This document shows, piece by piece, positions 11,408 through 64,000 of a DNA stretch of 64,000 nucleotides (position 1 is the first letter of the stretch; each line of letters opens with the position of its first letter). Source of the stretch: Gammaproteobacteria bacterium (lineage in GTDB: Bacteria > Pseudomonadota > Gammaproteobacteria > UBA4575); contig JAJDYY010000008.1 of assembly GCA_022824965.1 (NCBI GenBank), forward strand, positions 449,482 through 513,481, written 5' to 3'. The notes under the pieces are model-generated. The model was given only the letters and a program-made list of their open reading frames with translations, searched no databases and was not told where the DNA came from. Position numbers and translations under genes: made by a program.

Positions 11408-11410
11408 GGC

Positions 11411-12211: not shown

Positions 12212-12306
12212 GCTGCATCAGTATACAATCAAGTTTCCGGTCGCCCTGCAGGGATTCCGCAAAGCCCGCGCACAACACCGGCGAAAACAGTGAGCACATC
12301 ATAAAC

Positions 12307-23443: not shown

Positions 23444-23652
23444 AACTCAATACTGAAACCGGATACCTCTGCGGTACAGGTGAGTTGCTAGATACATACC
23501 TTGAGCCTATTTTTTTACTCAGGGACAATGCTGTAAAAAATGTTGTTGTGCAACCCCAGAAAAATGGGAAGCCTGATGCATTTTTCAGTTCTCCCACTTG
23601 AACCTCTGGTTCAAGGGCTATAGCGACCACAGTATTCGTGGAGTGTATCCGC
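23444..23652 (+). ncRNA. ssrS: 6S RNA (SsrS)
   Basis: Intergenic segment directly downstream of zapA, as in E. coli. It contains the conserved 3'-side hairpin CACUUGAACC-UCUG-GUUCAAGGGCUAUAGC (E. coli: CACCUUGAACCAAGGGUUCAAGGGUUACAGCC) and the 5'-side CCUUGAGCCUAUUUUUUUAC element (E. coli: CCCUGAGCCGAUAUUUCAUAC). The terminal regions can pair (caatactg / cagtattcg). The ends are approximate. Confidence 0.7.
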
Positions 23653-45723: not shown

Positions 45724-45742
45724 AGGTTGTCCCCGGTAGCTC

Positions 45743-46093
<351 letters not shown>

Positions 46094-46263
46094 TCACGTA
46101 GGTGGTTTCTACAATACACGTATAACTCGTTGTTGCATTTATCAAGCGATTGAACTGACTACCCGCTCCTGATCACAAGAAATTATAGGTAAATTAATAC
46201 ACTGGCGCACTCATGCAGCATGGCACGCATGCGTCATCGGCTGGTCGTGCACTGCACCGCCGT

Positions 46264-47289: not shown

Positions 47290-47361
47290 ACGGTTTCTCC
47301 TCATACGGGTCACAAAACTTGGAACCGGCGGGCAGGTTCGCAAGCCCGCCGATGCCAACCA

Positions 47362-48840
47362 TCATTCCGGTTCTATCAGATGTCCGACACGAACGATTTT
47401 CAGCGCATTCGTACCCCCGTCCACCCCGATCAAATCGCCCTTGGTAATGATAACCAGGTCGTTTTCCTGCACAACCCCGCAGCGGAGCAACACATCGATT
47501 GCATTCTTGTTGACCTCCGCATGGGAGCGGCTGAGGATTTCCATGGGGGCCGGATAGACCCCTTTGTACAAGGTCACCCTTCGCAGGGTTTTCTCATGCT
47601 GTGTCAATGCATAAATGGGAATTTCCGAGCTGATCCGGGACATCCAGAGAGCTGTGGAACCCGATTCTGTCAGTGCGGCAATGGCGGTCACGTTCAAATA
47701 GTTTGCGGTGTACATCGCCGACATGGCAATGGCCTCGTCGACCCTTTCAAATCTTGAATACATGCGATGATCCGATACCGTATTCAAGATCCGCCGCTCC
47801 GAGGCAAGGCAGGTGCGATGCATGGCCTTGACGGACTGAACGGGATACTTGCCCACCGCGGTCTCGCCTGAAAGCATCACCGCATCGGTTCCGTCCAGCA
47901 CGGCATTGGCCACATCCGAGACTTCCGCGCGGGTCGGGATCGGACTGAAGGTCATCGACTCCATCATCTGCGTGGCCGTGATCGCAATGCGGTTTTTGGC
48001 ATGCGCCTGGTCAATCAGCGACGCCTGCACACCGGGGACTTCCGCATCGCCGATCTCGACACCGAGGTCCCCCCGGCCGATCATGATCGCGTCACACTCA
48101 TCCAGGATTTCATCAATGGCATCCAGCGCTTCGGTGCGCTCGATCTTGGCAATGATTCCGCCGCGACCACCGGCCTCCTCGAACAGCCTTCTTGCCTGTC
48201 GGACATCTTCCGCCGAGCGGGGGAACGAAACGGCCAGATAGTCGATGTCCAGCTTCACGGCATCACGAATGTCCTGCCGGTCCTTGTCGGTCAGCGTGGC
48301 AACGGCCAACCCTCCTCCCTGGCGGTTGATGCCCTTGCTGCTCAGCAACTCCCCTCCCATCACGACTTCACTATGGATCCTGCCCTCGGCCACGTCGGTG
48401 ACCTTGAGCACGATCCTTCCGTCATCGATCAACAGGCTGTCGCCTGCGCTCACATCATCCGCCAACCCCGGGTACGTGGCGCCGACCATCGTCTCGTCAC
48501 CCTGGTCGAGAGGCAGGTTCGTATCGATACAGAATGCCTGCCCGGTATCCAGGTGAACCCGCTTGTCCTTGAATGCCCCGATTCTGATTTTTGCGCCCTG
48601 GAGGTCCCCCAGCACCCCCACCTCGTGGTGTTTTTCCTTGCTCAGCCTGCGCAGGGTATCAATGCGCCATCGATTCTCCTTGTAGGAGCTGTGTGAGAAA
48701 TTCAGACGTACCAGGTCGATGCCGACATCGATCAGGCCGGCCATGACCTGCTCACTGTCCGTGGCAGGGCCAAGGGTTGCGATAATCTTGGTATGCCGGA
48801 AAATCGTTTTCCTGTCCCGGACTCCAGTATTTGACTCCAT
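47362..48840 (-). CDS. pyk: Pyruvate kinase
   Basis: PK family motifs (TKIIATLGPAT, MVARGDLGVEI-type IGRGDLGVEIG...). The ORF opens at 48900; the Met at 48840 is the likely start. Confidence 0.9.
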   Translation of the reverse strand: MESNTGVRDRKTIFRHTKIIATLGPATDSEQVMAGLIDVGIDLVRLNFSHSSYKENRWRIDTLRRLSKEKHHEVGVLGDLQGAKIRIGAFKDKRVHLDTGQAFCIDTNLPLDQGDETMVGATYPGLADDVSAGDSLLIDDGRIVLKVTDVAEGRIHSEVVMGGELLSSKGINRQGGGLAVATLTDKDRQDIRDAVKLDIDYLAVSFPRSAEDVRQARRLFEEAGGRGGIIAKIERTEALDAIDEILDECDAIMIGRGDLGVEIGDAEVPGVQASLIDQAHAKNRIAITATQMMESMTFSPIPTRAEVSDVANAVLDGTDAVMLSGETAVGKYPVQSVKAMHRTCLASERRILNTVSDHRMYSRFERVDEAIAMSAMYTANYLNVTAIAALTESGSTALWMSRISSEIPIYALTQHEKTLRRVTLYKGVYPAPMEILSRSHAEVNKNAIDVLLRCGVVQENDLVIITKGDLIGVDGGTNALKIVRVGHLIEPE

Positions 48841-48927
48841 GTCAGTTTCCGGTATCGGGTCGTGCTGTACGGGGCAGCGCGCATGGGCCATTCTGGCCAA
48901 TGGTTATGCTGCGGGTGATTTTACGCA

Positions 48928-50100
48928 TTAGCGATTTGCTCTTTGCTCTAAAATGCCAACGGCGGGCAGGACCTTCCCTTCCAGATATTCAAGAAACGCA
49001 CCGCCTCCGGTGGAGATGTACGAAATTTGATCTCCCAGATCATACAGATCGATTGCGGCCAGCGTATCACCGCCTCCTGCGATTGAGAACGCCTGGCTCT
49101 CGGCAATGGCCCTGGCTATAACCTCCGTGCCCTGCGAAAAGGCTTCAAGCTCAAAAACTCCGACCGGGCCATTCCATATGATTGTACCTGCATTGGACAG
49201 ACAGGATGCCAGTCTTTTTGACGAGTCGGGGCCAAAGTCCAGAATCATGTCCTGCGGGCCAACCTCATCTACCTGCTTTGTCGTGGCCGTCGCAGCTTCA
49301 GACACTTCGATGGCGCAAGCGACATCGGTTGGCAGCGGAATCTTCATTTCCCGACGACGGCCCTCCGCCAGTAGATCCCTGGCGATGCCCACCTGGTCTT
49401 TCTCATACAGGGAATTTCCAACCGGCTTCCCCGCCGCGGCCAGGAATGTGTTGGCGATTCCCCCGCCCACGATCAGCTGATCCACTTTGTCGAGCAGCGA
49501 TTCCAGGATTTTCAGCTTCGTTGAAACTTTTGAGCCTCCCACAATTGCGACCAGTGGCCTGTCCGGCCCGGCCAGGGACTTGTCCAGCGCACGCAACTCC
49601 TTCTCCAGCAGCGGACCCGCACAGGCGACGGGAGCGTACTTGGCAACACCATGGGTTGAAGCCTGGGCACGGTGGGCGGTCCCAAATGCATCCATGACGT
49701 AGACATCGCACAAACCCGCGATCTTTCGTGCGAGCCGTTCATCATTGCTGAGCTCACCGGCCTGGAATCGCACGTTTTCACACAGTGTGACCTGGCCAGC
49801 TTCCGCCTCGATGCCATCCAGCCAGTCTTTCTCGAAATTGACTTCAAGGCCGCAGTGCGCCTCAAGATACTCTGCAACCGGCAGTAGCGAGAAATCCTTG
49901 TCGTAGCGCCCCTCCTCAGGGCGCCCCCTGTGAGAGAGCAGGATGACCTTCGCACCTTGTTCCATGGCCAGACGTATGGTGGGCAGGGCCGCTTCGATCC
50001 GCGCGGCGCTGGTGACCTGCCCGTTTTTCACGGGCACATTCAGGTCCTCACGGATCAGCACACGGCGACCCGCGAGATCAAGGTCGGTCATGCTTAGCAC
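48928..50100 (-). CDS. pgk: Phosphoglycerate kinase
   Basis: Pgk signature ([12 protein letters not shown]..., [26 protein letters not shown]) and 390 aa. Confidence 0.95.
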
Positions 50101-50158
50101 GGGCGGGACCCGGTGGTTGGCCTGGGCGGCGCTGAGTGGTGGCCGCCGGGCTGGCTTG

Positions 50159-51163
50159 TCACTTGGCGCTCATCAGAGCAAGTGTCGTATCCAGCATGCG
50201 GTTGGAAAAGCCCCACTCGTTGTCGTACCAGGAACAGACCTTCACATTGCGCCCGCCCATCACCTTGGTCAGGGATGCATCGAAGTTGGAGGAGTGGGCG
50301 TCATGGTTGAAGTCGACGGACACCAGCGGCGCATCCACGTACCCCAGCACCTTGTCGTCGGCGGCTTCCCGCATGACGGAATTGATTTCATCAACACTGG
50401 TTTCCCGGGCAGCCAGGAACGTCAGGTCCACCAGCGAAACATTGATGGTCGGAACACGGATGGCAAAGCCGTCAAGCTTGCCGTTCAGTTCGGGCAACAC
50501 CAGACCCACAGCAGAGGCAGCGCCGGTTTTTGTGGGAATCATCGACATGGTTGCCGAGCGCGCACGCCGCAGGTCGGTATGGTAGATGTCTGTCAGCACC
50601 TGGTCATTGGTGTAGGCATGCACCGTGGTCATGACTCCATTTTCGACACCGATCTTCTCATGTAACGGCTTCACCATCGGTGCCAGACAATTGGTGGTGC
50701 ACGAAGCGTTGGAAATCACCGTGTCCTTGGCGCTCAGTATGTCGTGATTGACACCGTACACGATCGTGGCATCCACATCCGAGCCCCCTGGCGCAGAAAT
50801 AATGACCTTTTTTGCCCCGGCTTTTAAATGGCCTGATGCCTTCTCCTTGCTGGCAAAAAAGCCCGTACTCTCATGCACGACATCGATATCCAGGTCGCCC
50901 CAGGGGAGCCGGCTCGGATCCCGCTCGGCACATACTCGGATGCGGTCTCCATTGATGACCATGTACTCGCCATCAACCTCGATCGTGCCATTGAACCTTC
51001 CATGCGCGGTGTCAAATCGGGTCAGGTGTGCATTGGTGTTCGCATCACCCAGGTCATTGATGGCAACCACCTGAATTTCCGAGTTGCGGCCCGACTCATA
51101 CAGTGCCCGCATGATATTCCTTCCGATTCTCCCGTAACCATTAATCGCAAGTCTTATAGTCAT
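50159..51163 (-). CDS. gap: Glyceraldehyde-3-phosphate dehydrogenase
   Basis: GAPDH signature ([20 protein letters not shown] with the active-site Cys). The ORF opens at 51253; the Met at 51163 (MTIRLAING) is the likely start. Confidence 0.95.
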
Positions 51164-51197
51164 CACATTCTCCATACTTATCTCGAAAACAAAGCAT

Positions 51198-53198
51198 CTA
51201 TCTGTCAAGCATGGCCAGGGCGTGCTCGACGATACGATCGCTGGTAAAACCAAAATGCTGCATCACGGCTGGACCGGGTGCAGATGCCCCAAACGTGGAG
51301 ATTCCAATGGTATCCCCTTCAAGGCCTACATATTTCAGCCAGTAATCGGACACGCCCGCCTCAACGGCCAAACGACTCCTGACGGCACCGGGCAACACCG
51401 ATTCCCTGTATGCCTCATCCTGGGCATCAAACACATCCGTACTTGGCATGGAAACCAGCCGCACCTTCCTGCCCCGGCTGCTTAATTCTTCCGCAGCCTG
51501 CAGTGCGATTCCAAGCTCAGACCCGGTTGCAATCAGTATGATCTCCGGGACTGTGGAGCAATCGAGCAGGACATAGCCGCCCCTGGCAATGCAGGCGACC
51601 TGGTCTGCGCTACGCGGTATGAAAGGCAGGTTCTGGCGCGAGAAGACCAGGCTCGTGGGTCCGCTGTCGCGTTCGATCGCATATTTCCATGCGACCGCGG
51701 TTTCGACCGTATCCGCAGTACGCCATACCGACATGTTTGGGATATATCGAAGCGTGGCAAGCTGCTCTACGGCCTGGTGCGTCGGACCGTCTTCCCCGAG
51801 TCCGATCGAATCGTGGGTGTATACGAAAATGTTTCTCTGGCCCATCAGGGCTGCCATGCGCAGGGCATTGCGTGCATACTCCGAAAATACAAGAAAGGTG
51901 GCACTGTAGGGGATGAACCCGCCATGCAGGGCAATGCCGGTGTTGATCGCCGACATCCCGAACTCCCGCACACCATAGTAGATATAGTTTCCCGGCACCT
52001 GTTCCGTACTGATGGCCACCGAACCGGACCACCAGGTATTATTGGAGCCGGTCAGGTCCGCAGAACCTCCGATGATTTCGGGCAGAAGGCTTGCATACCC
52101 TTCCAGGGCGAGTTCCGAGGCCTTGCGCGTCGCAACGGTCTGTTCTTCGGCAACCGCCTTGGCGACTACCTCGTCCGATTCCGTGTCCCAGTCCGGTGGC
52201 AAGTCTCCCTGCATCCTTCTTGAAAACTGGGCGGCAAGCTCCGGGTGCTGCTGCTGGTAGTGTCCAAATTGCTCTTCCCACAGGGCCTGGCGTGCCCTGC
52301 CCTTTTCCGTGGCATCCCACTGGCTGTACACGGACTCGGGGATGTGGAAAGGCCGGTGCTCCCAGCCAATCCGGGCGCGCGCCTGTTCAATCTCCTGCTC
52401 GCCCAGTGGAGCACCGTGCGTGGCTGCCGTACCCTGCTTGTTCGGTGCGCCCCAGCCAATCACCGTTTTGCAGCAGATCAGCGTAGGACGGGTCAGCGCA
52501 TCCCTTGCATTCTCGATCGCCGTTTTGATCTGGGCGGTATCATGACCATCCACGTCTGCAATGACATGCCATCCGTAGGACTGAAACCGCTTCGGGGTAT
52601 CGTCTGTGAACCAGCCCGCGACCTCGCCGTCTATGGATATCCCGTTGTCATCGTAAAACACGATCAGCTTGCCTAGCCCGAGCGTTCCCGCAAGGGAGCA
52701 GGCCTCATGCGAGATTCCCTCCATCAGGCATCCATCACCCGCAAATACGTAGGTGTAGTGGTCGACAATGTCCAGATCACCCCGGTTGAAGGTCGCCGCC
52801 AGAACCTTTTCCGCCAGCGCCATGCCCACTGCATTGGCCAGACCCTGTCCCAGCGGGCCGGTCGTGGTTTCCACGCCAGGGGTGTCCCCGTACTCCGGAT
52901 GTCCCGGAGTCCTCGAATGCAGTTGCCGGAAGTTCCTGATCTCTTCCATGGAGACGTCATACCCGGTCAGATGCAACACCGAATACAACAACATGGAGCC
53001 ATGGCCGTTGGACAGAACGAAGCGGTCACGATCCGCCCACCCAGGATCGTTCGGATTGTGCTTCAGATAGTCATTCCACAGCACCTCGGCAATATCGGCC
53101 ATGCCCATCGGCATGCCGGGATGACCGGAGTTTGCACACTGCACCGCATCCATGCTCAATGCACGGATCGCATTGGCAAGCTCCAGGCGGTTCTCCAT
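51198..53198 (-). CDS. tkt: Transketolase
   Basis: TPP-binding and transketolase motifs ([26 protein letters not shown]...) and 666 aa. First gene of the tkt-gap-pgk-pyk-fba array. Confidence 0.95.
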
Positions 53199-53267
53199 CT
53201 AGGAGACTCCCGCCGACCTGTACAGCCTGGTGTCCATCAAAACCGCTTTCGTGATCGTCAATGTCCT

Positions 53268-53298
53268 AAATAGAAAAGGTCCTGCATGCCGCAGGACC
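53268..53298 (-). terminator. Candidate Rho-independent terminator downstream of the GPP34-P450 gene
   Basis: On the + strand, aaaaGGTCCTGCatgccGCAGGACC. Read on the - strand this is an 8-bp GC-rich stem followed by a U-run (uuuucuauuu). It lies about 285 nt past the stop, so the assignment is tentative. Confidence 0.4.
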
Positions 53299-53582
53299 CT
53301 GTAGTCCCATTTCCGGGGGCGCTATTGTGAAATACTTGCCCAGACAGGGCAATAGTCACTTGGCAGGCCGCTACAGGAAATCAGTCTGCTAAAGCCTCAA
53401 TCAGCGCGGAAACTTCTCTCAACGCGGCATCAAGCCAGATGTCTGATTTAAAGTAAATATCCCGTATGAAGATTTTTCAAAATCATGGCGCCGGGATGGA
53501 AAAACGGACGGAACGTAGGGGAATTTCTGTCCCTTTGCCGGCAGGGAGCGGGTATCGTTTTGTGCAAGATGGTCCGGACAGC

Positions 53583-55583
53583 TCAGGCCGGATCAAGCGG
53601 ATGGCGGTGCCTCACCACTCTGAATTTAAACTTCTTGTCGGGACTGAGCTTGGGCAGGGGGTTGATTCTGAGCTTGTAATCGGCCGGCACCATCTCCAGT
53701 TCCAGGTGGCGTGCAACCAGGAGCACGTTGATGGCCATCTGCAATTCGGTCCAGCGGGCACCACCACACATGTGCGTACCGACGCCGAAGGGTACGTACA
53801 CACCCGCAGCTTGCTTGTGCTCGTTTCTCGGTGGCGCATACCTTTCAATATCAAAGGTCTCCGGGTCCTTGAAGTATTTCTCGTCAAAATGAACTGCGGG
53901 AAAAGCGATCAGTATTGTACTGTAGGCCGGTATCTCCATGTCCTCGACCTCAAATGCGTTCATGGCGGTACGCAGGTGCATGGGGATCACCACATGCAAA
54001 CGTAACACCTCCATCACAAACCGGCGTGCCACATCGATCGTCGACGGATTGATTTTTTCGGCATCCGGATCTCCGTCGGCAAAGAGAGCATCCGCCTCAT
54101 CCGCAAGCTTGGCAAGCAAGTCCGGATTCGCCAGCATTTCATAAATTGCGAATGCCATGGCACTTCCCAGGTAGTGTCCGGCAATGATCGGTGCGATGAA
54201 CGCAAACCCAAGGTCGGTTTCCGGCAGGAACTGAGGATCGCCCTGGTGCAACTCCATTAGGTCATCCACCAGGTCCCGGCGTTTACCCTCCCGTTGCGCG
54301 GGCGTGTGCGTTGCGTGGATCTGTGCATACAGATCCAGAACGCGTGCATGGGCCCGCTTCATGGCCGGGGTGCGCAATGTGAACTTGGGCAGGATCCGGA
54401 ACACGTGAACGAGCAGAGCCCGGTATTCGAAGGCCAGCAACGCATCGAGTATGTCACCGGGATCGATGCTGACACTGAGCTGGGCAATCTGCTCACCGAT
54501 CAGTCGCTGGGACGCCATCTCCCCGGCGATCACGTTGCCCACTCCCCAGTTTGCAAACGTACGTCTGCCCATGGCCAGTACTTCTGCCATCCGGTCCTCG
54601 ACCACTGCCCGGGAATTGCCCGCCTGCACGGCCTTGCGCATGCGGAAGTGATCTGCACCATCCATGCTGGCAATCGACCGTGCGGTTCCCCACTCTCTTT
54701 GAAAGCCGCCAATATAATCCTGGGTGCGAAGGTAAAGGCGGCCCTTATGTCCGACCCAGCGATTCAACTCTGCACTGGCAAACACCACCATGTCGCGACC
54801 GCCGGCATTGATTCTGAAAACCGGTCCCAGTTCCCTGGCTTTTTCCGCCATGAACTTCGGCAGGTTTCCCGAACGAAACGTCTTCGATGAAAGCATGCCG
54901 AACAGTCCGAAGGTCGGCAGCGGCGGCCGCTGTACGGAACGAATACTTGCAGGGGGGCGATAGGAACTGCGTACGGCGGAAGCGATCGTCCGACCGATCA
55001 GGTCCATCCCGCTGAAAAGTTCGATGCGTTTCTCAGCGAGTTCGTATTCCTCGGGTTCCAGCAGGGCACGCATCCCGTCACAGCTGTTCATCAGGCCGAT
55101 GATGGCAAAGTCGCGGGGGTCCGGAATCTCGTCATCCAGCAGCGCCCGCGAAATCCTGCTCTTGATTTCTTCGCCGGTTTTGCCATCGACTGTCGGGTAG
55201 CGCCGTGAGCGGGCAACCTTGCCCGACAGGGACCAGAATCCGCCTTCATCGGCATTGAGTATGCCCATCTTCACCAGGCGATCGAGTGTCATGTTGCTGA
55301 TCTCATCCGAGCGCTTGGCGATGCGTTCGACCCAGTACTGGGGAGAATGTACCTGCTTGTCCTGGGCGATTTCCTCCAGCGTGGGATCCAGCAGAGGATC
55401 TCCGAGAGGCGTCGGATCGAGCAGGGTGAGCGTTTCGAGGTCCGAATCTATCCGGTTTTCGAATGAAAGGTCGATCAGCACGCTGCCGGCCAGCACGCAC
55501 GACATTTTCCACTCCGGGATGGGAATGAAATAGCCTGTCTTCTCGCTCAGCAACAACAGGAGTATTTCTTCAGCAAATCGCAT
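53583..55583 (-). CDS. Fusion protein: N-terminal GOLPH3/GPP34-like domain (about aa 1-205) plus C-terminal cytochrome P450 (about aa 215-666)
   Basis: The N-terminus aligns with GOLPH3/Vps74 family hallmarks (AEEILLLLLSEKTGY...CVLAGSVLIDLSFENRI...GDPLLD...QYWVERI...LVKMGIL...EEIKSRISRALLDD). The C-terminus has P450 K-helix ExxR (EVLRLH), a PERF-like FDIERY and the heme-thiolate loop FGVGTHMCGG. It is a single uninterrupted 666-codon frame. Confidence 0.75.
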   Translation of the reverse strand: MRFAEEILLLLLSEKTGYFIPIPEWKMSCVLAGSVLIDLSFENRIDSDLETLTLLDPTPLGDPLLDPTLEEIAQDKQVHSPQYWVERIAKRSDEISNMTLDRLVKMGILNADEGGFWSLSGKVARSRRYPTVDGKTGEEIKSRISRALLDDEIPDPRDFAIIGLMNSCDGMRALLEPEEYELAEKRIELFSGMDLIGRTIASAVRSSYRPPASIRSVQRPPLPTFGLFGMLSSKTFRSGNLPKFMAEKARELGPVFRINAGGRDMVVFASAELNRWVGHKGRLYLRTQDYIGGFQREWGTARSIASMDGADHFRMRKAVQAGNSRAVVEDRMAEVLAMGRRTFANWGVGNVIAGEMASQRLIGEQIAQLSVSIDPGDILDALLAFEYRALLVHVFRILPKFTLRTPAMKRAHARVLDLYAQIHATHTPAQREGKRRDLVDDLMELHQGDPQFLPETDLGFAFIAPIIAGHYLGSAMAFAIYEMLANPDLLAKLADEADALFADGDPDAEKINPSTIDVARRFVMEVLRLHVVIPMHLRTAMNAFEVEDMEIPAYSTILIAFPAVHFDEKYFKDPETFDIERYAPPRNEHKQAAGVYVPFGVGTHMCGGARWTELQMAINVLLVARHLELEMVPADYKLRINPLPKLSPDKKFKFRVVRHRHPLDPA

Positions 55584-55648
55584 GTCTCATGCCCTCTTCC
55601 GGGAACCCGAAACTTTAAAACAAAACAGAATCCGTGTCTTCAAAGAAT

Positions 55649-56686
55649 CTACACTTCCACTGAGCGCAGGTTTCTTTGCTGCGAGTGCCCATCCTGGTGC
55701 TGCGGATAGAACTGTTCGCAATACCTTCTGTAGAGCGCAATCTCGCCATCAGCACGGCATAACTGCGGACGGGATCGGTAGCGTTTTCGACTCCATATCA
55801 CGACATCCTGCAAGACATCGCGTTTTTGTGTCGATGCAATGATCTTGTTATAGATTTTTGTTCGCAACCCCACAGGAAGGAAGCGCATGCCGATAATCGG
55901 CCGCTTCGGTCTGCGCATTTCCCGCAACTGTCCCACCAGGGTCAAGTCAATGAGTGTCCCGTCAACGGGTGTGGCCAGGACCCACAGCCTCGCATCCATG
56001 CCCAGGGTGCGTTCATGAATCTGCACAAACGAGTAACCCAGCCCGAAGACATGCGTGATGGCAGAAACATCAAATACGAAATTCAGGATGCCTGCGATGT
56101 TCCGGGTCCGCTTGAAATCAAAGCAGCTTTCAAGGCATGGGCCATTCACGGATACCGATGCTGTCCGGCAGACGTTGCTGTAGCCATGCACATAGCGCAA
56201 GTGCGCCAGATCCACCGAGTTTTCAGTTGTTTCCTGAGGATGGCCGGGAAATCGCATGCCCCTGAATTCCAGCTCGCTCCAGTCGGAGCCGGTTGGAGGG
56301 TCTTCGGGAAGGCTCCATGATGAAGACAGCCCATGATTTCCCCACCAGGCGAAAACAAGACCCAGAAGCTCGCGCGTTTCAAACACCTTCAGTTTCGCGG
56401 ACCGGGGCGCAGGGGCAAAGGGAGTGGCTACACACTGGCCGCCCGCATCATATTCAAATCCATGAAACGGGCAAACAAGACGGCCATTTCGCACCTTTCC
56501 TCCAGCCTCTGGGCCCAGTTCCGAACCCAGGTGCGGGCACACGGATTCAGCTACGCAAATCTGCCCTTCCGCGTCACACCAAGCGACTATTTCCTGGCCC
56601 AGCCAAGTTTTCTGAATCAACTTCTTCTTGACAATGGATTGACGGCTGGCCACGAAATACCAGCCCTCGGGAAATGGGAACAGCAA
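55649..56686 (-). CDS. Rieske [2Fe-2S] non-heme iron oxygenase, compact single-subunit type (KshA/PAO/Neverland-like)
   Basis: Rieske motif CPHLG-x17-CPFHG (aa 50-75), mononuclear Fe motif D159-x2-H162-x4-H167 (DLAHLRYVH) and 345 aa. Confidence 0.8.
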   Translation of the reverse strand: MLFPFPEGWYFVASRQSIVKKKLIQKTWLGQEIVAWCDAEGQICVAESVCPHLGSELGPEAGGKVRNGRLVCPFHGFEYDAGGQCVATPFAPAPRSAKLKVFETRELLGLVFAWWGNHGLSSSWSLPEDPPTGSDWSELEFRGMRFPGHPQETTENSVDLAHLRYVHGYSNVCRTASVSVNGPCLESCFDFKRTRNIAGILNFVFDVSAITHVFGLGYSFVQIHERTLGMDARLWVLATPVDGTLIDLTLVGQLREMRRPKRPIIGMRFLPVGLRTKIYNKIIASTQKRDVLQDVVIWSRKRYRSRPQLCRADGEIALYRRYCEQFYPQHQDGHSQQRNLRSVEV

Positions 56687-56904
56687 TGGAGAATTAGTGC
56701 TCTCGGCTTGAGTGACCTACATATTTCATTGGATGCCTAACAGTTTGCAAGCTCATCCAGGTGCTGTGATCAACTAAAGATACCACATTCATGATGTCCA
56801 AGAGCACGGCTCCACAGCAACGTTAGCCCATACCCTGCCAAGATCATTGCTAAACCCGTGTTTGCGAGAAGCACAGTGCAGGCGTACAGGACTGCCTGCA
56901 GAAT

Positions 56905-59900
56905 TTAATCGGCGGTGCGGGATGCAGCCGTAGTGGTGGGAATACCTGCTTCAGTGCCTTTCATCCGCCTGCGCAGGTGAATCGACATCAGCGCAGGGAT
57001 GACCATCATCAGGATGGCCGTGGTGATCATGATCCCAAACCCGAGCGATGCGGCAAAAGGCACCAGGAACTGGGCTTGAATGGAACGTTCAAGAATGAGT
57101 GGCGTAAAGCCGAGAAATGTGGTCACGGAGGTCAGCAAAATCGGACGGAACCTTCCTTTCGCACCCTCAATGATTGCACTTCGGGCAGGCGAGCCTTCAT
57201 CAAGCTTCTGGTCGATAAAGTCGATCATCACCAGAGAGTCATTCACAACTACCCCGCTCAGGCCGAAGATACCCATGAATGAAGCGGCACTCATGGCAAC
57301 GCCCAACACCCAGTGGCCGAGGATCGCACCGATCAGCCCAAAAGGGATTACGGCCATGATGATAAACGGTTTGGTATAGGAGCGCAGGGGGATGGCGAGC
57401 AGTGCGAAGATCATCAGCAAAGCGAGTACGAAACCACGATTCAGCGAGTCCAGAGACTCCATCTGCTGCTGCTGTTCACCCCCAAACGTGTAGGTCAGGT
57501 CCGGGTACTCTGCCGTGAGACCCGTGAGAATTGAATTGGCTAGAATACTGTTAGCTTCTCCACTAGATATCATTGTTTGATCCACATCCGCGGTCACTGT
57601 GACGACACGTTGCCCGTCTTTGCGTCGAATCGAGGGCGGCGAGATACCCGATTTGAGCTGAGCCACTTGGCTTAACGGGACCTCTGCTCCGCTCGGTGTG
57701 TGGATCAGGTACCCTTCAATGTCGGTAATGGCATTGCGTTCATTGGCCGGTAGCCGCACATACACGCGGACCTCTTCACGGCCCCGTTGAACCCTCAAGG
57801 CCTCGGCACCGAAGAACGCAGAACGGGCCTGCTGAGCCAGTTCCTCAAGTGTGAGCCCGAGCGTTCGCGCTTCGGGGCGCAACTCGATCTGGATTTCCCG
57901 GATTCCAGGGGAGTGGTCGGAGCGTACGTCAAAGACTCCACCTATTGCACGCAGGCTGGCGACCATGGAGCTCGCAATATCGGCCAAGCGCTTCGGGTCG
58001 GGATGCGACAATACGGCCTCGACAGGATTGCCAAGATCAATAATCTCGCCGCTGAAGGCGAGACCCCGGACATAGGGAAGCACACCGACCTCTTCCCGCC
58101 ATGCATCCACCACCGCGCCTGTGGAAATCTCGCGCTGCTGTGCGCCCAGCAATTTGAATTCTATGGTGGCAATATTGGCTTGCGGATTGAGTGTGGGCTC
58201 AGGCACCAGTCCGCCACCCTCTACACGCGGCCCCTGACCGACGGTCACGGTCACCCCGGAAAGCAAGGAAGGCGAACCCTCGGCCCGCTCTCGAGAAAGC
58301 CGTTCGATCGCCCGGTGACCCGCGGTCTCAAGCTCTCTCGCCACCTCGTACGTCCTCTGCGCGGTCGTGCCATCAGGCATTTCCAGACTGGCCGTCACGA
58401 AGTCTCCTTCAACCACATCAGCAAAGGTCGTCTTGACGATCCCCGCAGGCAACAGGGATATACTGACGATGAGCAGCCCGATGGCGCCAGCAACGGTCAC
58501 CACGGGCTGAGCCGTCGCAAAATGCAGGGCGCGGTCCAGGGGGCCTTTCAGAAATTTGCTGACCGCCTGATCGACCAGGCCCTGGGCCTGGGCAAAAAAA
58601 CGTTCAACGGGACCCGTGGGTACATGATCCGGTCCATGCAGATGGGACAGGTGATTGGGCAAGATCAGCAATGACTCGACCAGGGAAATCAGCAGCATGG
58701 CAATGATGATCACGGGCAGGGCGCCCCAGATTTCCCCGATCCCCCCGGGAATAAAGAGCAGCGGGGTGAACGCCGCGACCGAGGTGAGAACGGCAAACGT
58801 CAGGGGTATCTTGATTCGCCGTGCCCCGCGAATGGCCGCCGCTACCCCCGCTGTACCGCGCTTGCGCTCGTAGTGGATATGTTCTGACACCACGATCGCG
58901 TCATCGACCACGATGCCGATCGCTAGAACGAACGCGAACAGGGATATGGTGTTGATCGCAATGTCGAGCGCCAGCATGACTGCCAGGGCACCAATGCCTG
59001 AAACCGCCAGGCCGGCGGCAACCCACACGGCGAGCCGGATTTCCATAAACAGAGCCAATGCAATGAATACCAGGAGCAGCCCCAGTGAGCCGTTTTTTAC
59101 AAGCAGGTCGACACGTTCCGCATAGGACTGGGATTCATCGTTCCAGATGGTGACCCCCACACCTTCAGGAAGGGAGGGGATGATCACATTTGCGACATGG
59201 TCCTGTACGGCGGTCGCAACATCCATCACCTGTTCCCCGTCGGACCGGTAGACCTCAACGAAGGCAGCAGGCTGATTTTGGTGCCGGACGATCAAGTCCG
59301 TGTCCTGGAAGCCGTCGCGGACCACGGCAATATCACCCAGGCGGACGACAGTACCGTCGCTGCGGCTCAGAACCACGATGTCTTCGAAATCCTGTTGATC
59401 GTAGCGCTGTCCAAGCGTACGCACCCGCACCTGCGCCTCCTGCGTTTCGATACTGCCCGCCGACAGGTCCAGGGAGCCATGGCGAATGGTGTCTGCGATG
59501 CTTGTCAGGGTCAGGCCCAGGGCACGCAGGCGCTGCTGTGGTACTTCGATGGAGATTTCATAATCCCGAACACCGCTGGTATCCACCGATGACACGGCAT
59601 CAAGCGAAGCGAGTTCATCCTCGACCCGGTGTGCCAGCTCCTTGAGTGAGCGTTCAGAAGCATTACCGTAGACAATGAGACGAATCACGCTTTGCCGATT
59701 GGTCATTTCCCTGAACTCCGCACGCTCTGCCCCGCCTGGGAAGGACTGGATGCGACCTACCGCAGATTTGATATCATCCAGTGCCCGGCCGATATCCGTA
59801 CCCGATTTCAGCTCGATTCGGATGGATGCCATCCCCGGAGCCGCCACGGACTTCACTCTCTTGATGTCATCCAGCGAGTTGACCTGCTCCTCGATCTTGA

Positions 59901-60126
59901 CGATGATCGATTCTTCCACCTCCTCGGGCGTGGCACCCGGATAGGCCATGGACACCTCGATCGTGTTGAAGGGCAAGGTGGGCCAGGCCTCACGCTCAAG
60001 ACCGGTCAGCGCTACCAGGCCGGCTGCAAGTATGGCGACCATGAACAGGTTGGCAGCGACACTGTTGCCCGCCATATAGGCGATCGGTCCGCCTGGCTCA
60101 CCCGGATGACTGGCGCTGCGGCTCAT
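56905..60126 (-). CDS. RND efflux transporter inner-membrane permease (AcrB/HAE-type)
   Basis: About 1050 aa with twelve transmembrane helices and two large periplasmic loops; RND family N-terminus (NLFMVAILAAGLVALTGLEREAWP...). The probable start is the Met at 60075. Confidence 0.9.
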   Translation of the reverse strand: MSRSASHPGEPGGPIAYMAGNSVAANLFMVAILAAGLVALTGLEREAWPTLPFNTIEVSMAYPGATPEEVEESIIVKIEEQVNSLDDIKRVKSVAAPGMASIRIELKSGTDIGRALDDIKSAVGRIQSFPGGAERAEFREMTNRQSVIRLIVYGNASERSLKELAHRVEDELASLDAVSSVDTSGVRDYEISIEVPQQRLRALGLTLTSIADTIRHGSLDLSAGSIETQEAQVRVRTLGQRYDQQDFEDIVVLSRSDGTVVRLGDIAVVRDGFQDTDLIVRHQNQPAAFVEVYRSDGEQVMDVATAVQDHVANVIIPSLPEGVGVTIWNDESQSYAERVDLLVKNGSLGLLLVFIALALFMEIRLAVWVAAGLAVSGIGALAVMLALDIAINTISLFAFVLAIGIVVDDAIVVSEHIHYERKRGTAGVAAAIRGARRIKIPLTFAVLTSVAAFTPLLFIPGGIGEIWGALPVIIIAMLLISLVESLLILPNHLSHLHGPDHVPTGPVERFFAQAQGLVDQAVSKFLKGPLDRALHFATAQPVVTVAGAIGLLIVSISLLPAGIVKTTFADVVEGDFVTASLEMPDGTTAQRTYEVARELETAGHRAIERLSRERAEGSPSLLSGVTVTVGQGPRVEGGGLVPEPTLNPQANIATIEFKLLGAQQREISTGAVVDAWREEVGVLPYVRGLAFSGEIIDLGNPVEAVLSHPDPKRLADIASSMVASLRAIGGVFDVRSDHSPGIREIQIELRPEARTLGLTLEELAQQARSAFFGAEALRVQRGREEVRVYVRLPANERNAITDIEGYLIHTPSGAEVPLSQVAQLKSGISPPSIRRKDGQRVVTVTADVDQTMISSGEANSILANSILTGLTAEYPDLTYTFGGEQQQQMESLDSLNRGFVLALLMIFALLAIPLRSYTKPFIIMAVIPFGLIGAILGHWVLGVAMSAASFMGIFGLSGVVVNDSLVMIDFIDQKLDEGSPARSAIIEGAKGRFRPILLTSVTTFLGFTPLILERSIQAQFLVPFAASLGFGIMITTAILMMVIPALMSIHLRRRMKGTEAGIPTTTAASRTAD

Positions 60127-61352
60127 GGTCTCGAGCCGGCCTCGCTGCGAACCATCATGCCCTCGGTCGCAAACTGGATTCCCCCGGTGATGACTGCAAG
60201 ACCTTCCTCCAGGGCCCCCGTTACAAAAACTTCATCGTCGCCGCGCTGCAGCACCTGTACCGGGACAATTCCGACCGACTGGTTTTCGCGAACCACCCAT
60301 AACTCGTTGTTCGATTGCAATGCGGAACGCGGTACCTGGAAATAGCTTTCGGGGGTGATGCCCTGGATCTCTATTTCCACAAATTTGCCGATCAGCAGCG
60401 GGGGGGCATGCTCGGGACGCGCCGCGCCCTGCACCTGCTCACTCCTGGAAAAGGGGTCCGGCACCCGCACGACCACGTCAATGGTTCGTGTCTGCTTGTC
60501 CAGCGAGGCTTCGGCCCGATCGACGTAGCCGTTCCACGCAAAGCTTTCATCGCCGAATCGGGCAATCACGCGCGCAGGCACCTGCCGTTTGCCATTCCCC
60601 TTCTGCAGTTTCCACAGCCCGGGGATCAAGGCCGTGCTGGCATCGGAAAGAGGGATCACCACTTCGACAGCATCGGCAGCGAACAGTCGTCCCACTGACT
60701 TGCCCACCGACAGGAACTGTCCCTTGTCCACGAACTCTTCGCGTACATAGCCATCAAAAGGTGCATTCACCTTCGTCCTGGACAAAGCCAGCCTAGCTTC
60801 TGCCACCCTGGCTTCCTCGCGCTTGAGTGCCGCCTGAGCCGCCTTCAACTGGGGTTCGCGCAACACCAGGGGGCTCGCCTGGTCCACCGTGGCCCCGGAC
60901 TCAAGCTGTCGCCCTGAATACTGCTCGTATTCACTGCGTGCCACCGCTGCCAGTTCCTGGGCCTCGAGAAGTGCCACTTTTCGGTCTTCAAGGTCGGCCA
61001 TGGCCTCGCGAAGGCGATACTGGTAGTCCGCCTGTTCAATGCGGAACATCGTCTCGCCGGCCTTGAGTCGCCCGCCACTGTGGAAATTCGGATTCACCCA
61101 GTCGACCCTGCCTCTGACTTGCGGGGTGACATCGATCTCGGCACTGGGCCGCACCGTACCGGCCCCGTACACGGGGATAGCCCCCTGCCCGGACATCACC
61201 CGGGCCGTGTGTACAAACGGAATCTGGGGCGGCTGTTCACGACGCTCCGGCTCAGGGGCCAGGGACACCAGAATGGATGCCAGCACCACCGCGCCAGCCA
61301 GAATTCCTGCGGCAACCAGGTAACCTTTCAGTTTGTTCTTCAGTCTGTTCAT
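60123..61352 (-). CDS. RND efflux periplasmic adaptor (membrane fusion protein)
   Basis: N-terminal membrane anchor, coiled-coil hairpin and beta-barrel/MP domains (HlyD/AcrA-like). 4-nt overlap with the RND gene. Confidence 0.85.
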   Translation of the reverse strand: MNRLKNKLKGYLVAAGILAGAVVLASILVSLAPEPERREQPPQIPFVHTARVMSGQGAIPVYGAGTVRPSAEIDVTPQVRGRVDWVNPNFHSGGRLKAGETMFRIEQADYQYRLREAMADLEDRKVALLEAQELAAVARSEYEQYSGRQLESGATVDQASPLVLREPQLKAAQAALKREEARVAEARLALSRTKVNAPFDGYVREEFVDKGQFLSVGKSVGRLFAADAVEVVIPLSDASTALIPGLWKLQKGNGKRQVPARVIARFGDESFAWNGYVDRAEASLDKQTRTIDVVVRVPDPFSRSEQVQGAARPEHAPPLLIGKFVEIEIQGITPESYFQVPRSALQSNNELWVVRENQSVGIVPVQVLQRGDDEVFVTGALEEGLAVITGGIQFATEGMMVRSEAGSRP

Positions 61353-61358
61353 GCTGAT

Positions 61359-62936
61359 TTACTCAGTGGGTAAGGTTGCAACTTGCGGGCCCGCAACCTG
61401 TGGAGAATCGTCAATTTGTACGGCACCTGGTTCAGAAGCCGTCCACACACCGCCCAGGGCGCGGTGCAGCGCGAGCCGCATGTAGCCCAGGTCACGTTCT
61501 GCCGCGACCAGCGAGGACCTCATGCTGGTGAGGGTTTCCGAAGCGGCCAGAAAGTCATCGTAATCCCCGACCCCGGACCGGTAGCGCCGCTCCTGGAAGG
61601 CGGCCTCCGCCCGGGCTTCCTTAACGGACGAGTTCAGCAGGGCATGGCGGTGGTAACTGGTCTCCAGCTGGGCCAGCACCGCCTCGACCTCGTTGACCGC
61701 AGTCACCACTGAGTGCTTGTAAGCGGAAACCGCTTCTTTCAGCCGGGTCTCAGCGAGTGTCACATTGTGGCGCAGCCGCTTGCCCTGAAAAACCGGTCCT
61801 ACCAGATTCAGGCTCAGGTTTTTGAACCACTGGTCCGCATCAAACCACTGGTCAGTGTCCGAGCCCTGCAGGCCGATGGAGCCGGACAAGGACAGGGACG
61901 GCAGGAGTTCAGCCCGGCGGGCACCGACGGCATAGCGCGCCGCTTCCATGTGCTGGCGGGCAGCGCCCACATCGGGGCGTTGCGCGAGCAGGTCCGCAGG
62001 AATACCCACCGGAACGTGCTCGAGCGTCATTGACGGGGACAGGGAATCGGGCAACACGCCAGCCAGGTCCGCCCGGTATCCTCCCAGCAACACCCAGAGA
62101 CGTCCCTGTGCATCGGCCAGCTGGCCCCTGACCGCCGGCAGTTCAGCCTGAGAATTCCACAGCTGCAGGCGCGCGGTATAGAGTTCGCGTGCGGTATTCA
62201 GGCCACGGTGATACCGGGCCGTGGTGAGCTTCTCGCGCTCCTTCAGAATTCTCACAATCTCGTCGGACAGCCCGAGTTGCCGTCGCAGCCAGGCGACTTC
62301 GATGTAAGTATGCACGGTTTCCGCAACGACCCCGATACGGGCTGCACGGTGATCCCACTCGGAAGCCAGGTGCCTGGCACGGGCCGCCTGTGCATCATGG
62401 CGGTTGCGGCCCCAGAAGTCGGCCTCATAGGAGAATTCCGTGCTCAAAGAGTACGTGGTCACCGCCAGGCGGTCCGGCACGGAAATGCCAAACTCCTGCT
62501 TGAGTTCCGGGCTCAACCCGATCTCTTCGATCTGCTCACCCACTCCGGCATTGGTCGGTGAATCGGTGTCCTCGGCTGTCACGGATGGCTGCAGCGCAGG
62601 GTACCTGGCCGCATTCGCAATGCGGGCCCGGGCCCGGGCCTGCTCCACACGCGCCACGGCCCCCTCCAGGTCGAAGTTCGACGAAAGCGCGGCTTCCACG
62701 ACCCGATCAAGTACCGGATCGTTGAATGTCTTCCACCACTCCAGCGGTGCATAGGCCTCGGCCACCGCCTCCCCCGTGAATCTCTCGGGCAATGGCGGCA
62801 CGGGCTCCTGCGCCGGCAGGAATGATTTTTGTGAACACGCGGCCATAAGAAATCCGGTGATGACCGGGAGAAGTACCGCGGGTGCACGGTGGCGCCGGTG
62901 TGTAGTCAATCTTCCTGAAACAGTTGCCATTATCAT
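61359..62936 (-). CDS. Outer membrane efflux protein, NodT/TolC family lipoprotein
   Basis: Lipobox-like LMAAC after the signal sequence and the duplicated OEP alpha-helical/beta-barrel repeats. The ORF opens at 63068; the Met at 62936 is the likely start. Confidence 0.8.
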   Translation of the reverse strand: MIMATVSGRLTTHRRHRAPAVLLPVITGFLMAACSQKSFLPAQEPVPPLPERFTGEAVAEAYAPLEWWKTFNDPVLDRVVEAALSSNFDLEGAVARVEQARARARIANAARYPALQPSVTAEDTDSPTNAGVGEQIEEIGLSPELKQEFGISVPDRLAVTTYSLSTEFSYEADFWGRNRHDAQAARARHLASEWDHRAARIGVVAETVHTYIEVAWLRRQLGLSDEIVRILKEREKLTTARYHRGLNTARELYTARLQLWNSQAELPAVRGQLADAQGRLWVLLGGYRADLAGVLPDSLSPSMTLEHVPVGIPADLLAQRPDVGAARQHMEAARYAVGARRAELLPSLSLSGSIGLQGSDTDQWFDADQWFKNLSLNLVGPVFQGKRLRHNVTLAETRLKEAVSAYKHSVVTAVNEVEAVLAQLETSYHRHALLNSSVKEARAEAAFQERRYRSGVGDYDDFLAASETLTSMRSSLVAAERDLGYMRLALHRALGGVWTASEPGAVQIDDSPQVAGPQVATLPTE

Positions 62937-63120
62937 GCAGCCTATCGCACTACGCGTGCGATGCAGAAACTTCTGATCAGCGACCTTCTCATCGAGCCCT
63001 CGTCTGCTCGGGCAGAGATTATCCGTCGCTGCGCCATCATCCATAACAGGCGGTCCGGCCATTCCCACTGCTCAGGTTCAGCCGGTGTGCCTTCCCTTTT
63101 GGCTTATCTCGGGCCAGACG

Positions 63121-63678
63121 TCATGCCTTCCACTTGATGTTGCACCCTACACTGGGTTTCTGTTCGGGATCGATACTTTGACCCGCCAGCAGGGCATCAA
63201 GGGCAAGGCGCAGGCTTTCACCGGTCACAGGGATGTCATTGCCCGGTCGCGAATCGTCCAGCTGACCCCGGTACACGCATCCCAGTGCCTGATCGAAGAC
63301 ATAGAAATCGGGCGTGCAGGCCGCATCGTACAGCCTGGCCACCTGCTGGGTCTCGTCATACAGGTAAGGAAAGGTATATCCGAGGGACGCCGCCAGGGCC
63401 TTCATGTTTTCCGGTGAGTCCTCGGGATACTGGACGGCATCATTGGAACTGACAGCAACCAGCGAGACACCGCGGGCAGGATACTCCTGGCCGAGCCGGA
63501 CCAGTTCGTCCTGGACATGCTTTACGAAGGGGCAATGGTTGCATATGAACATGACCACGGTCGCGATCTCGCCACGCACGTCCGACAGGCACACTTCCTT
63601 CCCGGAAACCGTATCCGGCAGGCAAAATTCCGGCGCCGAGGTGCCCAGGGGCATCATGTTGGAGGGTGTGCGCGCCAT
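63121..63678 (-). CDS. Thioredoxin-fold thiol-disulfide oxidoreductase (AhpC/TSA-redoxin family)
   Basis: CxxC in thioredoxin-fold context (VVMFICNHCPFVKH), 185 aa from the Met at 63678. The ORF opens at 63999 through an implausible leader. Confidence 0.75.
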   Translation of the reverse strand: MARTPSNMMPLGTSAPEFCLPDTVSGKEVCLSDVRGEIATVVMFICNHCPFVKHVQDELVRLGQEYPARGVSLVAVSSNDAVQYPEDSPENMKALAASLGYTFPYLYDETQQVARLYDAACTPDFYVFDQALGCVYRGQLDDSRPGNDIPVTGESLRLALDALLAGQSIDPEQKPSVGCNIKWKA

Positions 63679-63780
63679 GGAATCAGGAATGCATTTCTTA
63701 AATGTACTCGAATTGCGTAGAATAGCGCGATTCAAGGCGCCTGTTAACCGTTGACAGGCCATACCAGACCCAAAGAGGCC

Positions 63781-64000
63781 CATGCCTGCGACACGTGTTT
63801 TCACCTCCGAGTCCGTATCTGAGGGGCATCCGGACAAGATGGCAGACCAGATCTCCGATGCGGTGCTGGATGCCCTTCTCGAACAGGATCCCGGTGCCCG
63901 CGTAGCCTGCGAAACCCTTGTGAAAACCGGCATGGTCGTGCTGGCAGGAGAGATCACCACCTCGGCCCACGCAGACCTCGAGTCCCTCGTGCGGCGCACT
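63781..64000 (+). CDS. metK: S-adenosylmethionine synthetase (5' part; continues beyond the window)
   Basis: The translation [60 protein letters not shown] matches the highly conserved MetK N-terminus. The gene has no stop within the window, so it is absent from the ORF table. Confidence 0.9.

Follow-up and report, generated by a model that had tools for sequence, protein, structure and literature searches.

The question raised by this locus is why a complete efflux pump from the RND superfamily (resistance-nodulation-division) should be encoded next to two oxygenases, one of which is fused to a GOLPH3-like (GPP34) domain. The locus lies on the minus strand near the end of a 64-kb stretch of contig JAJDYY010000008.1 (Gammaproteobacteria bacterium, UBA4575), hereafter called the window, and a first-pass annotation had presented it as a row of six genes coupling a tripartite pump to a Rieske oxygenase and a GPP34–P450 fusion protein, with a sterol-like or other lipophilic molecule as the suggested substrate. 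The reading that we favour, at a probability of about 0.55, is that these genes belong to a module in which sterols are oxidised at the cytoplasmic membrane and carried outward by an RND transporter, with C-24 alkylation in its fuller versions; the sterols would probably be those of host sponges, partitioning into the bacterial membrane. Judging from sequence comparisons, the conserved core consists of the GPP34–P450 fusion, a KshA-type Rieske oxygenase and an RND-superfamily lipid transporter, which is here a complete pump of outer-membrane factor, membrane-fusion protein and RND permease.

All six minus-strand open reading frames (ORFs) were reproduced with their coordinates and their Pfam and NCBIfam assignments, and the recomputed spacers (184, 6, -4, 218 and 65 nucleotides (nt)) agreed with the earlier values. 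The ORFs encode an AhpC/TSA thioredoxin-fold protein with a CNHC motif (63121..63678; Pfam AhpC-TSA, 68 bits), a NodT-family outer-membrane factor lipoprotein (61359..62936; TIGR01845, 282 bits, cut-off 210), a periplasmic membrane-fusion (adaptor) protein (60123..61352; TIGR01730, 144 bits, cut-off 95), an HAE1-like RND inner-membrane permease of 1073 amino acids (56905..60126; ACR_tran, 531 bits), a KshA-type Rieske non-heme-iron oxygenase (55649..56722, of which 55649-56686 is the open frame; Rieske and KshA_C domains), and the GPP34–P450 fusion of 666 amino acids (53583..55583; PF05719 and PF00067).

A gene set that persists through rearrangement

The surroundings of the fusion gene were compared among 106 loci, comprising 24 full-length fusion loci (one genome per species), 80 loci from metagenomes and two distinct loci from look-ups of two Acidobacteriota proteins, each of these two loci being recovered twice. 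A locus was treated as well flanked if the fusion gene had 7 kb or more of sequence on each side (n = 44), and those of the 44 with a fusion at least 55% identical to that of the window (n = 24) were treated as clade 1. A Rieske gene was found in 30 of the 44 well-flanked loci, an HAE1-like RND gene in 26, an MMPL transporter gene in nine, a sterol C-24 methyltransferase (SMT) gene in 14 and none of these in one, the corresponding numbers for clade 1 being 16, 23, 0, 2 and 1. When a FAD amine-oxidase-like (AOX) gene is counted as well, at least one such partner is present in 43 of the 44 loci, and an RND-superfamily transporter in 35. The orthologous RND gene (64-97% identical) stands beside the fusion gene in 41 of the 106 loci; in the 23 loci of clade 1 that have it, the identity is 64-80%. 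The look-up was also performed in the reverse direction with three RND and two Rieske orthologues, chosen only for their long contigs, and the fusion gene was nearby in all five cases. It lay no more than approximately 3 kb away in four of them, and at a distance of four genes (approximately 3.1 kb) in L119.

The same gene set is held in more than 40 gene orders and orientations; the order of the window is common only to L001 and L003, together with L002, in which a paralogue is inserted. As an internal control for synteny, the adjacency of tkt and gap, which lie downstream of the module in the window, is kept only in the three or four relatives that are at least 80% identical. A homologue of the thioredoxin-like gene was found only in the three closest relatives (L001-L003). 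Ordinary synteny thus decays fast while the module persists. The thioredoxin-like gene is not a member of the module, and the unit consists of five genes rather than of the six first described. An AhpC-TSA/DsbD_N protein encoded near the Acidobacteriota module of L032 was not picked up as a homologue of the thioredoxin-like gene. Many relatives encode the pump on one strand and the oxygenases on the other, and the genes nevertheless remain together; co-transcription, proposed in the first-pass annotation as a check, is therefore not required for the link and is not the right test of it.

The module occurs both in Gammaproteobacteria and in Acidobacteriota (Candidatus Versatilivorator, Bryobacterales) with protein identities of 65-75%, which implies horizontal transfer of the module genes between the two groups. 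Between the Ca. Versatilivorator loci L004 and L022 and the window, identity amounts to 75% for the fusion and to 69-75% for the RND and Rieske proteins. The expectation that the oxygenases should be conserved next to RND pumps in relatives is thus borne out, and the fact that the neighbourhood is kept from one phylum to another in spite of so much rearrangement argues for functional coupling of the pump and the two oxygenases, as had been proposed. The locus is most likely one copy of a horizontally mobile module of sponge-associated bacteria, and not a chance row of genes.

Relatives came from the metagenomes LXNI, LXNJ and JGIcombinedJ30088/Ga0209021, which derive from the sponges Sarcotragus foetidus, Petrosia ficiformis and Aplysina aerophoba (PMC10070321, supplement). 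The genomes of the nearest relatives are approximately 1.9 Mb in size. The metagenome-assembled genomes of some other relatives are, we believe, also sponge-associated. Note that L008 (JAAXHV010000174.1, isolate Plut_88898) carries a full-length fusion, and that we take its label to stand for the coral Porites lutea; it is therefore possible that the fusion architecture is not confined to sponges in the strict sense. In a Ca. Porisulfidus-like clade (L007, L009, L011, L012, L013, L015 and L023), a gene for a TonB-dependent receptor is convergent with the fusion gene, approximately 100 nt downstream on the opposite strand; the receptor may provide a route of uptake, or the arrangement may be no more than synteny of the clade.

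Partner genes in related loci

All ORFs of 107 loci (the above 106 and the window) were clustered de novo, and with Pfam three further recurrent partners were then recognised, which accompany the pair of fusion and Rieske genes in the more distant loci. An ERG6-like SMT was found in 32 loci, usually abutting the fusion gene. It has the domains CMAS and Sterol_MT_C (PF08498, 60 bits, cut-off 22), and the precomputed Pfam annotation of L119 agrees with this assignment. The SMT gene is directly beside the RND gene of the pump in four loci, between the fusion gene and the pump in L019, L024 and L046 and directly after the RND gene in L119. The SMT of L019 is 35% identical to yeast ERG6 over the full length (E 2e-70), values that are indicative only and that resemble those of the sponge-symbiont SMTs tested previously (PMC10070321). 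The AOX gene was found in 20 loci, and the nearest solved relative of its product is LkcE.

An MMPL transporter with a match to the sterol-sensing domain was found in 18 loci, sometimes accompanied by LolA-like periplasmic proteins. It remained below the cut-offs of the models for HpnN (TIGR03480, 104 bits against 752) and BstA (36 bits against 1400). Because it never occurs with the tripartite pump in the same locus, we take it to be a different transporter with the same task.

Two individual loci have additional content. In L117, which is without a Rieske gene, a gene of the FA_hydroxylase (ERG3/ERG25) superfamily adjoins the fusion gene, the only locus in which this was observed; the segment between the RND gene and the fusion gene (L117:13693-16053) holds, besides the FA_hydroxylase, a Methyltransf_21 gene and transposase fragments (DDE_Tnp_1, DUF4096). 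In L118 a divergent fusion/Rieske pair is surrounded by a variant island (L118:1-9803 and 11137-13248) with two MMPL/sterol-sensing transporters, two LolA-like (TP_0789-like/DUF1329) proteins and an AOX-like gene, an arrangement that resembles a periplasmic lipid shuttle.

The two oxygenases

The fusion is a single polypeptide in which the GPP34 domain (residues 4-204; 54972..55574; PF05719, 117 bits) is N-terminal and the P450 domain (residues ~236-666; 53586..54878; PF00067, 131 bits, with the best stretch at residues 392-651) is C-terminal, that is, the architecture of GPP34_L, discussed below. The two domains are joined by a proline-rich linker (residues 205-235; 54879..54971) with the pattern SSYRPPxSxR…P, in which S207, Y208, P210, P211 and R215 are invariant among 38 aligned sequences, all at least 65% identical to the query. 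In the AlphaFold2 model (predicted local distance difference test (pLDDT) 78, predicted template modelling score 0.70), the pLDDT falls below 50 at residues 209-218 of the linker. The family had 1218 database matches; in the best 120 clusters, identity to the protein of the window is 65-100% and both domains are always present. A second clade of fusions, approximately 44% identical, aligns end to end with the fusion of the window (as judged from the alignment, not from a tree).

The P450 domain has the fold of the family, and its motifs are intact: the heme ligand Cys606 lies in FGVGTHMCGG (codon 53766-53768), and ExxR is at residues 525-528. The closest solved sequences are those of CYP51 (7tef, E 1e-25; Methylococcus capsulatus CYP51, 4e-22), the CYP51 matches ranging from E 1e-25 to 1e-19 and being confined to the C-terminal half (phmmer, query residues ~398-637). 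The I-helix motif AGHYLGS (residues 466-472; 54168-54188) corresponds to AGHHTSS of CYP51; the His-Thr of the CYP51 signature is replaced by Tyr-Leu throughout the family, with Tyr471 invariant and Leu at the position of the canonical Thr. No member of the fusion family has the canonical acid-alcohol pair, the motif being either AGHYLGS or ASIYLGS, and an I-helix of this kind suggests unusual oxygen activation or non-monooxygenase chemistry. The top Foldseek match of the P450 model was the lanosterol-bound CYP51 of M. capsulatus (7snm). Foldseek was also tried for pinning down the substrate and was set aside as not discriminating, the scores being tied.

Several relatives carry a second, paralogous GPP34–P450 gene (approximately 44% identical, I-helix ASIYLGS) in the same module (L002:7789-9741(-), L010:17880-19874(-), L013:1022-2950(-) and L031:13420-15444(-)). 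In L002 the paralogue sits between the Rieske gene and the first fusion gene; the window has one copy only.

In the Rieske protein, the motifs CPH (residue 50), CPFH (72) and DLAHLRYVH (159) are intact and invariant in the family alignment. The protein had 2063 database matches, the top 120 at 66% identity or more. The cluster ligands, the mononuclear-iron motif, the KshA_C domain and the overall fold all place it among KshA-type oxygenases, and KshA is clearly the nearest solved structure. The start codon of the orthologues is an ATG at 56722, followed at codon 2 by TAG (56717-56719), where an otherwise identical database protein (P0121) has CAG (Gln). Because of this TAG the ORF begins at an internal TTG (56686) and encodes 345 amino acids, with both domains kept. 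In the nearest relative, L001 (OZ244850.1), the Rieske gene (L001:8860-9930) has at least two frame disruptions. These lesions could represent gene decay in a clade of genomes of approximately 1.9 Mb, or assembly errors.

With KshA and CYP51 as the nearest solved enzymes and the SMT in the modules of relatives, a sterol-like lipid, already named among the candidates of the first-pass annotation, appears on these comparisons to be the best-supported class of substrate.

The pump

Permease, adaptor and outer-membrane factor are encoded together, as in tripartite HAE1-type pumps. The adaptor gene overlaps the RND gene by 4 nt, and the NodT gene ends 6 nt upstream of the adaptor gene. The open frame of the NodT gene reaches 63068, the likely start being Met45 at 62936, and the protein has a lipobox-like sequence (...GFLMAAC). 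The three components, the 4-nt overlap of adaptor and permease genes and the NodT lipoprotein channel are as in AcrAB-TolC and MexAB-OprM; in contrast to those pumps, the permease lies far below the cut-offs of the named multidrug subfamilies (best model NF033617, 428 bits against 1250). Its best sequence match in the PDB is MdtB (E 2e-71), and its identity to solved pumps is approximately 25-30%, as inferred from E-values. It scored 22 bits with the HpnN model (cut-off 1100) and did not match BstA. The top 120 matches of the RND family are at least 75% identical. The permease is HAE1-like but represents a distinct, highly conserved family of its own, found beside GPP34–P450 genes.

Proposed mechanism

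We propose that a sterol enters the inner membrane and would there be hydroxylated, desaturated or demethylated by the cytoplasmic P450 and Rieske oxygenase, with electrons from redox partners encoded elsewhere. The GPP34 domain may hold the P450 at the membrane surface or hand over the lipid, the proline-rich linker providing flexibility, and would take the place of the N-terminal anchor by which microsomal P450s of eukaryotes are attached to the membrane. In relatives with the methyltransferase gene, the S-adenosylmethionine (SAM)-dependent SMT would alkylate the side chain at C-24. The RND pump would then take the product from the membrane or the periplasm and expel it through the outer-membrane channel. 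Transport may serve to supply the host or the outer membrane with a remodelled sterol, or to protect the cell itself. A more complete scheme, in which the island is a pathway that takes up host sponge sterols, remodels both ring and side chain and returns the products via the pump, is put forward only tentatively, and we consider it doubtful as a whole.

Several observations weigh against the proposal. With regard to the locus itself, the window lacks a methyltransferase gene, and the link to sterols is one of association in relatives, the fusions of which are mostly 40-48% identical; the counts given above were made without dereplication of the loci and so include related genomes. A stop at codon 2 compromises the Rieske gene of the window, and frameshifts affect that of L001; the full pathway may not operate in this lineage. 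With regard to the enzymes, the Rieske protein shares only 21% identity with KshA and does not pass the model of the sterol demethylase SdmA (NF052579, 36 bits against a cut-off of 600), with only the Rieske domain aligned. The P450 has neither the CYP51 signature (A/G-G-x-H-T-S) nor the canonical I-helix Thr, and full-length orthology to CYP51 was not found, the alignment being confined to the C-terminal half. The Foldseek scores are essentially tied among CYP51, CYP90B1, the fatty-acid hydroxylase BM3 and CYP3A, so that the fold says "lipid" and not specifically "sterol". HAE1-type pumps, finally, are typically broad-spectrum, and no redox partners are linked to the oxygenases.

Alternative explanations

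One alternative is a general xenobiotic defence. The oxygenases would functionalise lipophilic metabolites of the host or of co-symbionts (brominated alkaloids, terpenoids or fatty-acid derivatives), and a broad pump would expel the products in the manner of phase I and phase III metabolism, with no special relation to sterols. The closest solved relatives of the HAE1-like permease are indeed multidrug pumps (MdtB, MexK, TriC and OqxB), the P450 fold fits BM3, CYP3A and CYP184A1 as well as CYP51, the window has no methyltransferase, and the family is largely confined to chemically rich sponge hosts. However, such a defence does not lead one to expect the recurrence in the module of the SMT and of MMPL transporters with a sterol-sensing match, nor the ERG3/ERG25-superfamily enzyme; the structure that comes nearest to the Rieske protein is clearly that of KshA; and an identity of 65-80% of the three core proteins across phyla fits one defined substrate better. 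We regard xenobiotic defence as possible but unlikely.

The architecture of the fusion was published in 2025 (Microbiome) under the name GPP34_L and was called exclusive to sponge symbionts, in which it is enriched, with expression in metatranscriptomes of Aplysina aerophoba (PMC11706023). In that study GPP34 was proposed to be a secreted effector that binds phosphatidylinositol 4-phosphate (PI4P) of the sponge phagosome, the maturation of which it would block (PMC11706023). If this applied here, the P450 would act in the host, and the pump and the Rieske oxygenase would be unrelated. The homology of GPP34 to human GOLPH3 (3kn1, E 6e-5) agrees with that proposal, as do the enrichment and the expression just mentioned. 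However, the fusion contains neither a signal peptide nor a transmembrane segment, its highest 19-residue Kyte-Doolittle average (1.6) being located at the buried I-helix, and no secretion-system gene is a conserved neighbour. Arg90, Trp81, Arg171 and Arg174 of GOLPH3 are the PI4P residues; only the position of Arg90 could be aligned reliably, the other three being in poorly aligned stretches, and it is occupied in the window by Ala32, which is nearly invariant across the family. A P450 needs heme and a redox chain, and an effector fails to explain why the fusion is so tightly linked with a Rieske oxygenase of the cytoplasm, with a methyltransferase that depends on SAM and with lipid transporters of the envelope. 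We thus consider secretion improbable. With no signal peptide or transmembrane segment and with Ala at the Arg90 position, GPP34 seems better understood as a membrane-side module, and the fusion as one component of a conserved oxygenase and transporter module. The rare fusions of GPP34 with a Rieske protein and with an ABC-transporter ATPase reported from sponge symbionts (PMC11706023) involve partners of the same kinds as the neighbours in the module.

Even less probable is de novo sterol biosynthesis, with the P450 as C-14 demethylase, the Rieske protein as C-4 demethylase and the RND pump delivering the sterol to the outer membrane as proposed for Methylococcus. CYP51 as the closest solved sequence, the weak SdmA match, the SMT in relatives and the precedent of the sdmAB-bstABC operon are in its favour. 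However, the conserved neighbours in the 106 loci did not include a cluster for oxidosqualene cyclase or squalene monooxygenase, and the sterol clusters of sponge symbionts have much closer homologues of ERG11 (E 1e-70) and SdmA (44-47% identity) (PMC10070321, supplement). The low score with the SdmA model, the absence of the CYP51 I-helix signature and the small genomes of the nearest relatives also argue against it.

Steroid catabolism for carbon and energy, by a ring-opening pathway of the KshA type, would agree with KshA as the nearest structure and with steroid-degradation genes reported from sponge metagenomes (PMC5790920). It is very improbable: no KstD, Hsa or β-oxidation genes were found among the conserved neighbours, no KshB-type reductase is encoded in the window or among those neighbours, and neither an exporter nor a methyltransferase for the side chain would be of any use in catabolism. 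A merely accidental row of unrelated genes on one strand, with which the co-oriented housekeeping genes downstream and the uninformative promoter-like and terminator-like sites (see below) would agree, is refuted by the conserved, rearranged, cross-phylum linkage and by the five reciprocal look-ups.

Relation to described systems

The first-pass annotation did not recognise the combination as a described system. This has to be revised for the fusion, of which the two-domain architecture is that of the published GPP34_L, many two-domain database proteins being 65-100% identical to the protein of the window; it stands for the link to a pump, a Rieske oxygenase or a methyltransferase. The fusion family and every component family are known, and in the searchable literature no account was found that joins the fusion with a KshA-like oxygenase, a tripartite pump or MMPL transporter, and an SMT. 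In the study of GPP34_L, flanking genes were analysed only for the short GPP34, and efflux, pump, RND or sterol are not mentioned; Rieske proteins come up there only as rare fusion partners of GPP34 (PMC11706023).

The best analogue at the level of the system is that of M. capsulatus, in which the Rieske sterol demethylase genes sdmA and sdmB form a putative operon with bstA, for an RND-superfamily sterol transporter, and with bstB and bstC (PMC10942540). In both cases a Rieske oxygenase is genetically coupled to an outward RND-superfamily transporter. Unlike that system, the Rieske protein described here is not an orthologue of SdmA, and the transporter is a tripartite HAE1-like pump and not the MMPL-type BstA; the module is without homologues of BstB and BstC and without linked genes for sterol synthesis, and adds the GPP34–P450 fusion. 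On this comparison, the module may be placed among bacterial sterol-modification clusters with RND transport.

With the single enzymes the likeness is partial. KshA, the oxygenase of 3-ketosteroid 9α-hydroxylase, differs in sequence to the extent given above, and neither a KshB reductase nor other catabolic genes lie near the Rieske gene described here. CYP51 of Mycobacterium tuberculosis and of M. capsulatus gives the best match among solved P450s and has the AGH of the I-helix in common with the fusion; in contrast to CYP51, HTS is replaced by YLG, the N-terminal half was not alignable by phmmer, and GPP34 is fused N-terminally. For the SMTs of sponge symbionts, desmosterol and 24-methylenecholesterol have been shown to be substrates of methylation in vitro, in a study that does not mention P450, Rieske or RND neighbours of their genes (Nat Commun 2023, PMC10070321). 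The same sponge metagenomes (A. aerophoba, P. ficiformis and S. foetidus) yield SMTs inside the module of relatives, and the SMT-bearing contigs of our set do not overlap with the contigs assayed in that study.

The island thus joins two separate recent findings, the GPP34–P450 fusion and the sponge-symbiont SMTs, neither paper mentioning the genes of the other. It offers a concrete alternative function for bacterial GPP34, which changes how the fusion is best interpreted, and supplies candidate enzymes for the diversity of sponge sterols. If sterol oxidation coupled to RND-type transport is correct, this would be the second bacterial case after the sdm–bst system of Methylococcus, here on host lipids and spread between phyla by horizontal transfer. 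If the more complete uptake-and-return pathway held true, part of the unusual sponge sterols (C-24-alkylated "biomarker" and oxidised sterols) would be made by bacteria, and bacterial GPP34 would be a sterol- or membrane-handling domain and not a PI4P-binding anti-phagocytosis effector. The sterol repertoire of sponges is famously unusual, and functional symbiont SMTs complicate the use of 24-isopropylcholestane as the "earliest animal" biomarker.

Redox partners and flanking region

The absence of a dedicated ferredoxin or reductase, remarked upon in the first-pass annotation for the gene row, extends to the whole window, where Pfam searches of almost every ORF found none; a search of the intergenic gap that follows the fusion gene downstream (53199-53582) likewise brought up no small ferredoxin gene. 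In one clade of relatives, an FNR-like reductase with a ferredoxin domain recurs at 6-8 kb from the module, adjoining a 763-residue protein that was read by eye as a molybdopterin oxidoreductase. It was considered as a redox partner of the module and is treated as synteny of that clade, because it is not conserved in other clades.

Upstream of the thioredoxin-like gene, a sigma-70-like promoter match (9/12 positions) is present at 63719..63747 of the minus strand. Between the fusion gene and tkt there is a terminator-like hairpin on the same strand (53276..53300; 11-bp stem with six GC pairs and a T-rich tail), 283 nt past the stop codon of the fusion gene and 78 nt ahead of tkt, which may form a boundary between the module and the tkt-gap-pgk-pyk-fba genes. 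The numbers of promoter-like and terminator-like sites across 53000-64000 were not above those of shuffled sequence; the hairpin is therefore only suggestive, and beyond it the scans give no indication of the operon structure. Co-orientation by itself is also uninformative, because at least seven further housekeeping genes continue on the same strand (tkt-gap-pgk-pyk-fba, followed by glnB-amt; 44425-53198).

Outside the module, the window consists of ordinary gammaproteobacterial housekeeping genes. The Rfam and tRNA scans found nothing inside the module, and no tRNA genes were found in the 64-kb window. The sole Rfam match in the window is the 6S RNA (SsrS) at 23463-23648 of the plus strand (RF00013, 74 bits). 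As listed, the ORFs of tkt and gap have 56 nt in common; the true start of gap is therefore probably located further downstream.

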